Virus record (IMG/VR): IMGVR_UViG_2617270950_000011
Length of the DNA stretch: 30,900 nucleotides
Origin: a virus
Taxonomy: Duplodnaviria > Heunggongvirae > Uroviricota > Caudoviricetes
Direction: 5' to 3' (one strand)
The notes beneath the pieces were generated by a model that worked only from the letters and a program-made list of their open reading frames with translations, was not told the DNA's origin and made no database searches. Shown piece after piece: positions 11,373-21,321 of this stretch (the stretch's first letter is position 1; the number at the start of each line of letters is the position of its first letter). The translations under genes were made by a program, and so were the position numbers.

Positions 11373-12518
11373 TCAGCCAGGCCAGCGCCTCACGGTATCC
11401 GAGTAATACAGAAACGGTTTGCCATGATGGCGAATACCGTGCTGTATGGCACCGGCTACGGCGAAAACATTTTCAGCCAGGTCAAGGCTCCAGCCCACCA
11501 CAAAGCGCGTGCCACCGTCGATAACAAAGGTCACTTCCGGTGCGAATGGCCGCCCGTGAACCGGGTGCGCGCATTTCAGCTTCATGCCGTGACCGTCACC
11601 AATCCAGACATAATTCACCGGCATTTTTGACCAGTCGCGGCGCGTGAATCCCTCAAGCTGGCGGTATTCACTGCCGGTAACCCGTCCTTTTTGTTTCACC
11701 ACTTCCGGCAGTTTCTTCATTGCGCGGCGAATGGTGTCATAAGACGGCATGATATCGAGCATATAAGGCTCATCAGCGTGCCGGTGCTGCCATTCGGCAA
11801 CAAAATCCTCGTAAGCCTCGGTCATTGGTCGGCCGTTTGACTGGCGATACTGCGCCAGAAATTCGGGCAACCAGTTAATATCTTCGGCTTTTATTTCCTG
11901 GCGTTTACCTGGTGCCAGCAAAAGCAGGCGTTCAGCAGCGTTCTGTGCCTTATTAAAGGCCGCAATCCAGCGTTTCAGCGTGATTTCACTCAACACGCGA
12001 CTGTTTCCCTTTCTGGCGTTCGCTATCTCAACCATTGCCACAATGCGCTCATCCAGTTGCGAGTGTGACAGGCGGTCAACGATGAACCAGATAGCTTTAG
12101 CGCAGCTGAAACCGGGTTGTTGCGTGAATTTCAGCACCTCACTGACGATCGCAATGCGTGCGTCTGCCACCTGGCGCTGGTTTTCAGTCAGGGCATTGAG
12201 GCGTTCGACCATCAGTTGTGGTGATCCGCGATATGCCTCCACCGCATCAACCACGGCAGACGAGCGTCTGGCCTTTGTCACCACCGGAGCCGGTGATTCA
12301 TCGGCTTTTTGCGTCATCAGTTGCAGGGCATAACGTTCGCGTAATGCCTGCTGTGTCACTTCAGGTAAACAGTCAATGCTGTATTCAAAACCTTTAGCGC
12401 CTTTCTTGCGGCGTCTGCTGGTTTCGCTGGTTGCATACTTCCTGATTGAATAGCGAACGCCTTGCTCCGTTCCCGGCATCCCCGGTAATCCAACCAGTTC
12501 TTTGACTGAAGCAAACAT
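11373..12518 (-). pseudogene. Mu-type DDE transposase (MuA-like), C-terminally truncated after the second catalytic Asp
   Basis: 381 aa. N-terminus has the Mu winged-helix end-binding pattern (SVKELVGLPGMPGTEQGVRYSI...GAKGFEYSIDCLP); WIGDGHGMKL and ...YYSDTVRRWPG* match the first two DDE aspartate regions of MuA (recalled). The catalytic Glu and C-terminal domains are missing, and the next gene is gp37-like, not B. Confidence 0.75.
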
Positions 12519-12520
12519 AA

Positions 12521-12751
12521 TTACGCGACCTTACGAATGTAGCGGCTGGGCCAAATCTCCTCGGGCGGCACCCCCAGGCATTCCGCGATAATCCCCTCAT
12601 ACTTGGGAACATGGCGGTATACCGCGTTGTACAGATTGTTCTGACCCACGCCAGCTTTACGGGCCAGCGCCCTCATGCTTCCTTCTCTGGCTCTGACTTC
12701 CCCCAAAATTCTTTGAGGATGCCAATCAGGCTTAACTTCATTTCTCGCCAT
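12521..12751 (-). CDS. ner: Ner-like DNA-binding regulator
   Basis: 76 aa; ...WHPQRILGEVRAR...ALARKAGVGQNNLYNAV...PEEIWPSRYI matches the Mu Ner/Nlp pattern (recalled); sits immediately upstream of the transposase on the same strand. Confidence 0.75.
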   Translation of the reverse strand: MARNEVKPDWHPQRILGEVRAREGSMRALARKAGVGQNNLYNAVYRHVPKYEGIIAECLGVPPEEIWPSRYIRKVA

Positions 12752-12780
12752 GATTCATCTATCCTAAAAAGTTACGAAAT

Positions 12781-12804
12781 TTGATAACTAAACTTAGTTA
12801 TCAA
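12781..12804. promoter_or_regulatory. Operator-like 24-bp palindrome in the divergent ner/repressor control region
   Basis: TTGATAACTAA-AC-TTAGTTATCAA: 11-bp perfect inverted arms, with further TTGATA half-sites just upstream (~12779) and downstream (~12806); lies between the divergent Ner-like and repressor genes. Confidence 0.5.
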
Positions 12805-12935
12805 GTTTGATATAAGTATTGATCCACTTCTGCTTCATGTAAAGCAAAAAAACATCTTTCTTTTGTCTATTGTGGATCAATGGTTGCTGACAACACTAAA
12901 AGTTAATAATTTCAAATTGATAGGAAGAAAAGAAA

Positions 12936-13481
12936 ATGAACAAGCAAACAACAACATCTCTTTCTTTTCCTGGTGGTAGAAAAGAAAGCATTGCTGAGCG
13001 TCTGAAAAGGCTGATTGGCTCCCGCAGCGTCAGAGCTGCAGCAAGAGATTGGGGGCTTTCATTTTCAACACTAAACAATTATCTGTCTCGTGGCACTGAG
13101 CCATCCTTAAGTGTCGCCCTTCAGATTGCGTCTATCGAAGGAGTAAGTGTTGAGTGGCTATGTGGATTCAGTGATGCATCACAAGTGAATCGGTGCGAGA
13201 TCAAAGAAAATCAAGATGAAAGCAAGAAGATAATTATGACGATTATCAGCGCACTTGATGAAAAAGACTTAGAGCAGCTATCGAAAAATTTGGTTCTGAA
13301 TGGAGCCAAGTACTTAGCTCGGTTGTTAGAGCCTGAAAATCAAGATCTAATCCGCTTAGAAGGAAGGAAAAGAATAGCTGCATTACAGCTTGAAGGTATG
13401 TCTGACGAACGCGTCAGAGAGATTTTGGAAGAAACTGAGAGAAGTCGCAAATCTAACGCGGTAGAACCAAAAGCGGGTTAA
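12936..13481 (+). CDS. Phage repressor with CI-type N-terminal HTH (Phage_CI_repr-like)
   Basis: 181 aa; ...ERLKRLIGSRSVRAAARDWGLSFSTLNNYLSRGTEPSLSVALQIASIEGVSVEWLCG is a CI-type helix-turn-helix; divergent from ner across the operator palindrome. Confidence 0.7.
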   Translation: MNKQTTTSLSFPGGRKESIAERLKRLIGSRSVRAAARDWGLSFSTLNNYLSRGTEPSLSVALQIASIEGVSVEWLCGFSDASQVNRCEIKENQDESKKIIMTIISALDEKDLEQLSKNLVLNGAKYLARLLEPENQDLIRLEGRKRIAALQLEGMSDERVREILEETERSRKSNAVEPKAG

Positions 13482-13555: not shown

Positions 13556-13711
13556 GTATCAAATGAGTTGCCGATTTTATAATAAATGACTAATTATTGC
13601 ACAATCGGTATCAAATAGACCTTATCCGCACATCTAGCCATCACCTGTTTTATTTCAGTATCTTACAGGTGATTTCACCTCCTTTCACTAAAACCCTTGT
13701 CGGTATCAAAT
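13556..13711 (+). repeat. Three direct copies of GTATCAAAT plus a 9-bp inverted repeat at the repressor/gene A junction
   Basis: GTATCAAAT at 13556-13564, 13608-13616 and 13703-13711; inverted repeat ATCACCTGT / ACAGGTGAT at 13640-13648 and 13665-13673; TTATCCGCA (DnaA-box-like) at 13622-13630. Function unknown. Confidence 0.4.
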
Positions 13712-15715
13712 GATTCACCTGGTTATATTAACGAGGCCGCCGCAGCATTCTCATGGAACAGCCCGAAAAAGGCTATTAACCCTTATCTGGACCCGGCGGA
13801 AGTTGCGCCGGTTTCTGCGCTTTCAAACCTGATCACTCTGTACGCTGCCGATAACGAGCAGGAACAACTGCGCCGCGAGGCACTGAGTGATCAGGTTTGG
13901 GAGCGTTATTTCTTTAATGAATCCCGTGATCCTGTCCAGCGCGAAATGGAGCAGGATAAGTTCATTAGCCGGGCAAAGTTGGCGCATGAGCAGCAGCGTT
14001 TTAACCCGGACATGGTCATTCTGGCAGACGTTAACGCCCAGCCTTCCCATATCAGCAGGCCGCTGATGCAACGTATTGAATACTTCAGCAGCCTTGGTAG
14101 GCCAAAGGCTTATTCCCGCTATTTACGTGAGACGATTAAGCCATGTCTGGAACGGCTGGAGCATGTACGCGACAGTCAGCTATCCACTTCTTTTCGCTTT
14201 ATGGCAAGCCATGAAGGGCTGGACGGCCTGCTGATTCTGCCTGAAATGAGTCAGGATCAGGTGAAACGCCTGTCCACCCTTGTTGCTGCGCATATGAGCA
14301 TGTGCCTTGATGCAGCTTGTGGCGATTTGTATGCCACCGATGACGTTAAGCCAGAAGAAATCCGCAAGACATGGGAAAAGGTGGCAGCAGAAACCCTGCG
14401 ACTGGATGTCATACCGCCTGCGTTTGAGCAACTCCGCCGGAAAAGAAACCGCCGTAAACCCGTGCCCTATGAACTCATTCCGGGTTCGCTGGCGCGTATG
14501 TTGTGCGCCGATTGGTGGTACCGGAAATTATGGAAGATGCGTTGCGAATGGCGGGAAGAGCAGTTGCGTGCTGTTTGCCTGGTCAGCAAAAAAGCATCTC
14601 CCTATGTCAGCTATGAAGCCATGATGCATAAACGTGAGCAGCGCCGTAAGTCGCTGGAGTTTTTCCGTTCTCATGAACTGGTGAACGAAGACGGCGACAC
14701 GCTGGACATGGAGGATGTGGTAAACGCCAGCAGCAGCAACCCTGCGCATCGCCGCAATGAGATGATGGCCTGTGTTAAAGGTCTGGAGCTTATCGCGGAA
14801 ATGCGCGGTGACTGCGCCGTTTTCTACACCATCACCTGTCCGTCACGTTTCCATTCCACGCTAAATAACGGCAGGCCCAACGCTGAATACGTTAATGCCT
14901 GGGCGTCTCTGCATCGTGTTCAGCAATTCCGCTTCTTTGGCATTCCGGGGCGTCAGGCTTACCGTGAACTGCGATTGCTGGCTGGTCAGGCGGCAAGGCA
15001 ACAGGGGGACAAAAAAGCAGGTGCGCCGGTACTGGATAACCCGCGCCTTGATGCAATCCTGGCTGCTGCTGATGCTGGTTGTTTTGCCACCTACATCATG
15101 AAGCAGGGCGGCGTACTGGTTCCCCGCAAATATCACCTCATCAGAACTGCTTATGAAATCAACGAAGAACCGACCGCATATGGCGATCACGGTATTCGTA
15201 TTTATGGCATCTGGTCACCCATTGCAGAGGGCAAGATCTGCACTCATGCGGTGAAGTGGAAAATGGTTCGTAAGGCCGTTGACGTTCAGGAGGCGGCAGC
15301 CGACCAGGGCGCTTGCGCCCCTTGGACTCGTGGCAATAACTGTCCCCTTGCTGAAAATTTGAACCAACAAGGGAAAGACAAATCAGCTGATGGGGATACC
15401 AGGACGGACATTACCTGCATGGATGACAAGGAGTTGCACGATTACCTGCACAGTATGAGCAAAAAAGAGCGCCGGGAACTGGCTGCAAGGTTACGCCTGG
15501 TGAAACCGAAACGGCGTAAAGACTACAAACAGCGAATTACAGACCATCAGCGACAGCAGCTCGTCTATGAACTGAAGTCCAGAGGATTTAATGGCAGCGA
15601 GAAAGAGGTCGATTTACTCCTTCGCGGCGGCAGTATTCCGTCAGGAGCAGGCCTGCGTATCTTCTATCGGAACCAGCGTTTGCAGGAAGATGATAAGTGG
15701 CGAAACCTGTATTAA
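13697..15715 (+). CDS. P2 gene A-family replication initiator homologue, apparently missing the HUH/Tyr catalytic core
   Basis: 672-aa ORF from a TTG start (true start uncertain). [23 protein letters not shown] and [27 protein letters not shown] resemble recalled P2 A segments, but no HxH or YxxxY motif occurs anywhere in the ORF. Confidence 0.7.
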
Positions 15716-20796: not shown

Positions 20797-21321
20797 TTAG
20801 AAATGGTATTCTTGGAATTCAATAACACCTTCTTTTATGAAATTGTTTATTTCTTGTAATCTTTTTTGCAATGGCAATAATTCATTACGTACAAATACTT
20901 TACTCGCCTTCTCTACATCTCCAAAGCCCCCAACATTATTAGGCATTATCCCCATCATTTGCGGCGGCACACGGTGTGCCGCCATCATGTCGTCCCGGCT
21001 CACGTTCTTGATATTTAGAAACTCATCCTTCGCCGCGACTTCTGACAACGGGATAATCTGAAGCCCGTCCTTTTTGCCGTTAGGAGAGTACATAAACAGG
21101 TTGCGGAAGTTGCCTGGCCCTTTGGCGCTTTTCATTGCGTTGCGGAGGTTGTTCACATCTTCTTGGTTCTGCGCGGCATCGGTCATGTACATGATGAAGC
21201 CTGCATGACTACCGTTAATGTAATACTTGCGGCGGAACAGCGTGGCGGACTCGTTGAGCAGGGCCGACGGAATGGCAGAAAGATAACCGGGCAGGCCGTA
21301 GACCTCCTGGTTGATGTCCGG
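20797..21321 (-). pseudogene. Portal protein (P2 gpQ-like) C-terminal fragment
   Basis: Frame open from 21321 down to the stop at 20797; ...AHRVPPQMMGIMPNNVGGFGDVEKASKVFVRNELLPLQKRLQE resembles portal C-termini (recalled). The N-terminal portion is absent. Confidence 0.5.

Follow-up and report, generated by a model that had tools for sequence, protein, structure and literature searches.

A divergent control region in a Mu-like prophage

The window (the whole stretch of DNA that was analysed, 30,900 nucleotides) contains a Mu-like transposable prophage of E. coli, inserted in a P2-like prophage, and this Mu-like element has its early control region at the left end. The control region separates two divergent genes, a ner-like gene on the minus strand and a repressor gene on the plus strand, and corresponds to the exact interval between their start codons (ATG at 12751 and 12936, respectively). 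This gap of 184 bp (12752-12935) has a G+C content of 27.7%, compared with 50% for the whole window. The coordinates of the genes and of the features in and around the control region are listed in Table 1.

Table 1. Genes, control elements and element boundaries at the left end of the Mu-like prophage (window coordinates).
Feature	Position	Strand	Length or spacing	Description
Truncated Mu-type transposase gene	11373-12518	minus	about the first 374 codons	PF02316, E = 5.5e-9
Deletion junction	11396/11397			transposase codon ~374 joined to the head-tail region
ner-like gene	12521-12751	minus	76 aa	Cro-like negative regulator of the early operon
Array of four alternating half-sites (proposed Ner operator)	12770-12814		45 bp	starts directly past the Pe -10
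Half-site h1	12770-12776			AGTTACG
Half-site h2	12781-12788			TTGATAAC
Half-site h3	12797-12804			GTTATCAA
Half-site h4	12807-12814			TTGATATA
Perfect palindrome	12781-12804		24 bp; 11-nt arms, 2-nt centre	TTGATAACTAAACTTAGTTATCAA, i.e. TTGATAACTAA-AC-TTAGTTATCAA; half-sites h2 and h3
Predicted early promoter Pe	12815-12843	minus	17-bp spacer	-35 TTTACA (12843-12838), -10 AATACT (12820-12815)
Second inverted repeat (candidate repressor sites)	12818-12827 / 12872-12881		44 bp apart	ATTGATCCAC / GTGGATCAAT; flanks the Pe -35
Heptamer copy	12856-12864	plus		CTTTCTTTT; -79 from the repressor ATG
Possible weak repressor -10	12905-12910	plus		AATAAT, by analogy with TATAAT in many relatives
Candidate IHF-type site (degenerate)	12909-12922	plus		includes the fourth TTGATA (12917-12922)
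Heptamer copy	12927-12935			GAAAAGAAA; over the ribosome-binding site, -7
Repressor gene	12936-13481	plus	181 aa	XRE-type HTH N-domain; C-terminal half weakly Mu/D108 c-like
Heptamer copies	12960-12969 / 12979-12988			CTTTCTTTTC / GAAAAGAAAG; within repressor codons 9-18, +25 and +45
Prophage left end	13556-13727	minus		TCGGTATCAAAT(GA) repeats at 13556-13566, 13605-13616 and 13700-13713; end at 13727

The Ner-like protein matched the profiles Pfam PF13693 (E = 1e-21) and PHROG 769, and its structure matches were Mu Ner (1NEQ, E = 3.7e-13) and EnrR (7F9H, E = 2.9e-11). The transposase gene, recognised by its PF02316 domain, directly follows ner, as it does in Mu.

The repressor matched PHROG 3037, 'transcriptional repressor' (E = 4.5e-60). 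The initial annotation had called this protein a CI-type repressor, a term that turned out to be loose. The N-domain has an XRE-type helix-turn-helix (HTH), for which the matches to HTH_3 (E = 2e-4) and Phage_CI_repr (E = 7e-3) were both below the Pfam cut-offs. The Pfam domain search found no peptidase domain, and the C-terminal half weakly resembles the c repressors of Mu and D108 (reciprocal matches between PHROG 3037 and PHROG 7148 at about 1e-4; hhalign E = 0.002). The repressor also gave no match to PF02316, and thus does not share the transposase-homologous N-domain of the Mu repressor. A search of the structure database returned no significant relatives of the repressor among solved structures.

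A palindrome within an array of half-sites

A 24-bp palindrome with additional TTGATA half-sites on each side had been reported in the AT-rich region between the two genes. Our analysis bore out the setting, with exact coordinates, and the palindrome, which is perfect (11+2+11); the flanking half-sites were borne out on one side. The arms of the palindrome can be extended to 15 nt at 93% complementarity (12777-12791 and 12794-12808), and it is the longest of all perfect inverted repeats with a spacer of at most 10 nt in the window. Arms of 11 nt or longer were found in 0.3% of 5000 composition-matched shuffles of the 184-bp region (P ~0.003). Only three perfect palindromes with arms of at least 10 nt occur in the window; one of the others, GGCGGCACACGGTGTGCCGCC (10+1+10), is located at 20963-20983, inside a minus-strand ORF.

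TTGATA is present in four copies on the two strands of the 184-bp region, against 0.31 expected (P = 0.0002), and TTGAT in six copies, against 0.85 expected. Both extra exact copies of TTGATA (12807-12812 and 12917-12922) are on the right-hand side of the palindrome, and to its left we found only a degenerate inverted half-site, AGTTACGAA (12770-12778). The copy at 12807 is part of half-site h4. The copy at 12917, however, is not itself conserved and should not be counted as a half-site, because relatives hold the 3' part of an IHF-consensus site at this position.

The palindrome is the central pair, h2 and h3, of an array of four half-sites, and the window form of this array consists of GTTACGAAATTTGATAAC, TAAACTTA and GTTATCAAGTTTGATATA in order (12771-12814). 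Judged from its letters, the array could be read in either of two registers, as h2 and h3 around an 8-bp spacer or as two 18-bp units (h1 with h2, and h3 with h4). Relative to the ner ATG, the palindrome occupies the stretch 30-53 bp upstream, and it begins 11 bp past the -10 of the predicted Pe. Its form is that expected of a Ner operator, an inverted repeat with arms of about 11-12 bp, a short spacer and a total of about 30 bp.

Pe was the only promoter-like site that a consensus scan returned from the region. The scan places it right before the array and upstream of ner, with a start that is given by prediction, and this geometry is that of Mu. A promoter scan of the region revealed no convincing sigma-70 promoter for the repressor gene.

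Conservation of the control region in related loci

The repressor alignment served as query for a search of Enterobacterales genomes and viral contigs, which yielded 71 loci. The divergent ner/repressor pair was present in all 71 loci, with a gap of mostly ~170-185 bp, and the same layout recurred in them: a ner-proximal array, a conserved leftward promoter and a repressor-linked segment. In window order, the layout consists of the array, AGTATTGATCCA followed by TGTAAAGCAAA, an immunity-specific segment, CTTTCTTTT, and finally AATCAAT-NN-GTTA, GGAAAGAAA and the ATG. On the minus strand, AGTATTGATCCA and TGTAAAGCAAA carry the -10 and -35 hexamers of the predicted Pe, and few columns in the family alignment are as well conserved as these. 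The near-invariant box AGTATTGATCCA (12819-12826) in the Pe spacer contains GATC, a Dam site, in 46/51 loci, and the early promoter may be methylation-sensitive. A second GATC of the window (12875-12878) is located in the opposite arm of the second inverted repeat.

Conservation was scored on 44 non-redundant loci with other Ner types. Across these loci, which represent many enterobacterial genera, the array is conserved in position and in its 18+8+18-bp geometry (GTTATC-N6-GATAAC, N8, GTTATC-N6-GATAA). In most relatives it takes the form GTTATCCG-NN-CGGATAAC, 8 bp, GTTATCC-N4-GGATAA. We also searched viral and metagenome contigs for Ner relatives of 70-95% identity in other contexts, and this search returned only identical or distant copies.

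The sequence TGATCCACT fits 7/9 positions of the DnaA-box consensus by eye, but the family consensus is TTGATCCAAAT, and DnaA boxes were rejected.

In the published descriptions of SfMu (PMC4406740) and of the Yersinia Mu-like phages (PMC10434027), the C repressor and Ner are described by annotation only. The control region studied here is an uncharacterised representative of a class of phage switches that is well known, the classical Mu type, and its general significance is modest for that reason. Mu-like prophages of this group are widespread in E. coli and related genera but unstudied, and the comparison assigns the parts of their control region. It also points to concrete candidate sites at which Ner, the repressor, IHF and perhaps the transposase may act.

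The array as a candidate Ner operator

The relatives include natural mosaics, in which the two regulators have different partners. Prophages with a Ner that is 100% identical to that of the window but with repressors of 40-43% identity all keep the palindrome, and three or four different repressors are carried by mosaics in which the palindrome travels with Ner. Sequence shared with the window reaches the end of the extended palindrome, at 12808, in FORC_028 and in L051 and goes no further; in strain 48 it extends to about 12868. The reverse case is represented by L047. In this locus, Pe lies between the same GATCCAC arms as in the window, and no foreign repressor is closer (79% identity over the HTH). 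Its Ner, by comparison, shares only 54% identity with the window Ner, and the array belongs to the CGGATAAC type.

In relatives whose Ner is identical, TTTGATAAC and GTTATCAA(G/A)TTT stay constant and the central 8 bp vary (TAAACTTA, CAAAGTTA, TAAATTTT). Three bases in the inner arms of the palindrome vary among these phages (CTAAACTTAG, CCAAAGTTAG, CTAAATTTTG), so the perfection of the palindrome in the window is dispensable.

Across 56 loci, array identity correlated with Ner identity (Spearman 0.56, partial 0.52), although the array adjoins ner physically and linkage alone would yield much of this correlation and of the co-inheritance. The correlation of the array was -0.08 with the repressor N-domain, and with the transposase N-terminus it was 0.23 (partial 0.05 with the other two controlled). 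The segment to the right of the array followed repressor identity (0.46, partial 0.47). The recognition helix (helix 3) of the window Ner, QNNLYNAVYR, is unique, and so are the flanks of its half-sites, TTGATAAC/GTTATCAA. In nearly every other Ner protein the helix reads (P/K)D(T/S)LKNALxR, together with CGGATAAC/GTTATCCG flanks, a match between helix and flank behind which lies essentially one independent change of type.

In the mosaics, the correlations and the helix-flank match, the site follows the type of Ner and not the type of repressor, with linkage as a confounder. These comparisons suggest that the array, with the palindrome at its centre, is probably an operator for Ner rather than for the repressor. 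The palindrome and the TTGATA at 12807 are likely Ner sites because they are kept with an identical Ner across repressor swaps and because they occupy the position of the Ner sites in Mu and D108. In the mechanism that we propose, in which the start of the promoter, the protein that binds and the effect on regulation are inferred, leftward transcription from Pe would drive ner and the transposase gene, with the array directly downstream of the Pe -10. Ner made from Pe would bind the array as cooperating monomers, and bound Ner would then dampen early transcription, in the way known from Mu and D108, whose Ner proteins act at equivalent palindromes.

Alternatively, the palindrome and the half-sites could be repressor operators, comparable to Mu O3 or to the lambda type, that block elongation from Pe or a rightward repressor promoter in the lysogen. 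The recognition helix of the repressor, STLNNY, is invariant family-wide, as is the GATAAC core of the half-sites, and TTGAT is also found in both arms flanking Pe (12819 and 12880), such that one protein could read all six copies. We consider this unlikely, given that the window-specific array is unchanged where the repressor has been replaced and that array identity does not rise with repressor identity. Most relatives, moreover, have CGGATAAC and not TTGAT in the array, yet they keep the Pe box TTGATCCA; the resemblance between array and Pe box is therefore peculiar to the window type. The initial annotation implied that both regulators bind the same array with different preferences, like CI and Cro at lambda OR, and the divergent genes, their common 184-bp control region and the several similar half-sites would suit such sharing. 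However, the region consists of two modules with different co-variation partners and different mosaic boundaries, and it has no set of three equivalent ~17-bp operators shared by both proteins. In Mu and D108, the closest systems studied by experiment, Ner and the repressor each have sites of their own. A shared array is accordingly quite improbable.

The array could also belong to a transposition enhancer bound by the N-domain of the transposase, or be related to the TTGATA-containing end sites. The transposase does carry PF02316, and the three end repeats of the prophage contain TTTGATAC, which is similar to TTTGATAAC. The region is located ~940 bp from the left end, a distance that we take to be comparable to that of the Mu enhancer. 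Yet the end repeats of the relatives change completely (GTATCAAAT, CCTATCTTGAAT, AGTGCAGAAT) with no matching change in the array, and the partial correlation with the transposase N-terminus is close to zero. The CTTTTYNRWAW sites of Mu are on the repressor side of Pe and not at the Ner site, and the invariant TTTCTTT heptamers described below are better enhancer candidates; a role of the array in the enhancer is very improbable. That the palindrome is a functionless chance feature is hardly credible: AT-rich, low-complexity DNA is richer in palindromes than average DNA, but such arms are rare in the shuffled sequences and the array keeps its position and geometry in the 44 non-redundant loci.

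We also considered one protein for both the end sites and the operator half-sites, which share TTTGATA. This idea was rejected, as the class of end repeat changes without a change in the array.

Comparison with known control regions

In D108, a perfect inverted repeat, CCGTGAGCTAC-N8-GTAGCTCACGG (11+8+11), is located 25-54 bp upstream of the ner ATG. The window shares with this Ner operator a unique perfect inverted repeat ~25-55 bp before the ner ATG, about 30 bp overall, with conserved arms around an AT-rich 8-bp spacer that is free to vary, and a homologous Ner protein. The arms themselves are unrelated (TTTGATAAC in the window vs CCGTGAGCTAC in D108). The window differs further in its two additional flanking half-sites and in the DNA-binding domain of the partner repressor.

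The promoter scan used for the window placed Pe of Mu at 993-1021 (TTTACA-17-TATCTT), immediately followed by an inverted repeat, AGCTAGCTAAGT-TTTTAC-ACTTAGTTAAAT, with 18-nt arms (1023-1040/1047-1064, 78%) and a 6-nt spacer. The flanks of this repeat are annotated in the Mu record as part of the Ner binding region. The early region of Mu runs through c, O1, the IHF site, O2, Pe, the Ner site, ner and A. The window agrees with it in gene order, in the distance from the left end, in the -35 hexamer TTTACA of the predicted Pe and in the place of the proposed Ner palindrome right after the predicted -10, and the half-site core TAACTAA fits the Mu consensus TA(A/G)CTAA. Short T-rich repeats within the first repressor codons and near Pe are also common to both, and most relatives have an IHF-consensus site between these repeats, as in Mu; the window itself has no exact consensus. 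In contrast, the Ner arms of Mu are 6 bp apart and have CTAAGT at their inner ends; the inner CTAA/TTAG of the window varies among phages that share its Ner. The N-domain of the Mu repressor is a winged helix homologous to the transposase, and here it is an XRE-type HTH.

Another relative of Ner, with a solved structure in complex with DNA, is EnrR of Edwardsiella piscicida (7F9H/7F9I), which binds short AT-rich palindromes, AATAAAT-N-ATTTATT, as two adjacent monomers (PMC9023278). EnrR is a homologue within the Ner family, and the ATAA...TTAT core is found at both sites. Unlike the phage protein, EnrR is a domesticated global regulator that counteracts H-NS, and its consensus is a continuous ATAA-N5-TTAT compared with ATAA-N10-TTAT in the window.

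The arrangement also resembles lambda OR in its divergent promoters, in the genes for a repressor and a small antagonist, and in the palindromic sites between them. However, the repressor of the window has no RecA-sensitive (S24) peptidase domain, and the small protein has the Ner fold and not the Cro fold. Together with the two modules and their different partners, this sets the region apart from a lambda-type operator. The initial annotation proposed the operator region of a divergent lysis/lysogeny switch, and homology, position and comparative data support this proposal, with the amendment that the switch is of the Mu type.

Candidate repressor sites around the early promoter

If the array serves Ner, the sites of the prophage repressor would most likely be located further right, over and beyond Pe (12815-12990). 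This stretch includes the second inverted repeat, ATTGATCCAC/GTGGATCAAT, of which the initial annotation made no mention. In relatives (L041, L053, L019 and L047), arms are found at the same positions with other sequences (AAATTAGGACT/AGTCCTAATTT, ATTGAACCCA/TGGGTTCAAT and TTGATCCAAATTTCAC/GTGGAATTTGAATCAA). Folded as if it were RNA, the stretch with the second inverted repeat gave z = -3.3. Because this stretch is not one transcript in the Pe model, a role at the level of DNA is favoured, and we infer that the two arms are two repressor sites, five helical turns apart.

Between Pe and the repressor gene, the exact IHF consensus WATCAANNNNTTR is found at -25/-26 from the repressor ATG in 20/51 relatives, whereas 1.3 would be expected in all of them. 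The window has two mismatches to the consensus at this position, and it also lacks an exact TATAAT.

Conserved heptamers in and before the repressor gene

We found TTTCTTT/AAAGAAA heptamers at fixed offsets from the repressor ATG (-79, -7, +12, +25 and +45) in 51 non-redundant loci. An extra offset, -95, characterises a second class of loci, which have a shorter intergenic segment over Pe. The heptamer cores of the window (12857-12863, 12929-12935, 12961-12967 and 12981-12987) are at the same offsets in L002-L078. The heptamer at -79 is present in 38/51 non-redundant loci and forms highly conserved columns. The two copies CTTTCTTTTC and GAAAAGAAAG make up one of the three perfect palindromes of the window with arms of at least 10 nt.

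The heptamers inside the gene encode FSF and KES, and their synonymous sites are frozen. K-E-S is written AAA-GAA-AGY in 37/42 distinct 5' ends, against 13.7% expected from the codon use elsewhere in the same genes, and FSF is written TTT-TCT-TTT in 13/17. The codon pattern indicates a nucleotide-level (DNA) element embedded in the coding region, which appears to be laid out like the O1/O2 repeats of Mu. Mu has six CTTTTYNRWAW sites, compared with 0.32 expected: three are within the first codons of c, another pair lies over Pe, and the last (978, minus strand) falls between these clusters. We take this consensus to represent the enhancer-forming O1/O2 sites.

We also considered whether the purine and pyrimidine heptamers pair into an RNA switch at the 5' end of the repressor mRNA. 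The fold of this RNA was no stabler than that of shuffled sequences (z = +0.7), and the idea was rejected. A search of Rfam gave nothing meaningful as a known RNA family.

A tentative model can be drawn from the arrangement of the sites. This large enterobacterial family of Mu-like phages may have kept the layout of Mu (O1, IHF, O2, Pe and Ner) and exchanged the winged helix of the Mu repressor for an XRE-type HTH, with the Mu-c-like C-terminal half retained. The heptamers might then be the transposition enhancer for the N-domain of the transposase, and the TTGAT arms around Pe might be the new repressor sites. We consider this possible, though doubtful. If it is true, the repressor and the transposase no longer compete via homologous domains. 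The heptamers and the possible domain swap are a more unusual lead than the switch itself.

The defective prophage and its ends

Alignment with the full-length copy in NZ_CP145714 shows that 19.2 kb are missing from the window, starting within the transposase gene and reaching as far as the head-tail genes. The 2332 bp that remain at the left end have 99.87% identity to NZ_CP145714. Nine complete E. coli genomes contain the same 1.3 kb at 99.5-99.8% identity, and three more contain it at ~94%. Four insertion sites of identical-Ner prophages were inspected and all differ (bcsA, xdhA, a TerC-family gene and a site next to tesA).

The deletion leaves ner, the repressor gene and the whole control region intact, and they are identical or nearly identical to copies that recently transposed elsewhere. 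The initial annotation suggested that the switch may still be functional in the defective element. Retained function is plausible, since full-length copies have matching regulators and control DNA. Going by these matches, an active immunity module in the defective copy is likewise plausible, and the seemingly intact module could protect the host against related transposable phages. As a side effect of the deletion, transcripts from the early promoter could read into tail genes across the deletion junction.

The three end repeats lie ~14-27, 111-122 and 161-171 bp from the end of the element, and the L1-L3 end sites of Mu presumably have similar positions and spacing. The palindrome is ~930 bp from the left end, and a Mu-type control region is expected at about 0.9-1.0 kb from an end that carries three transposase end sites. 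Past 13727, the window runs within gene A (replication) of the P2-like prophage (13728-15715). The 672-aa ORF listed with a start at 13697 joins Mu end sequence to truncated gene A. The deletion junction and the Mu/P2 junction were each absent from 5426 complete E. coli genomes.

Independent insertions diverge past GGTTATA or GGTTACA. The left end of the window (13721-13727) is GGTTATA (TA-3'), and relatives have GGTTACA (CA-3'), the canonical Mu-type terminus. The TA-type end is nevertheless found at no fewer than five different insertion sites. The copy in NZ_CP145714 carries an ISKpn26 insertion between the early and middle genes (9435-10415 in L079), and this reference prophage may not be fully functional either.
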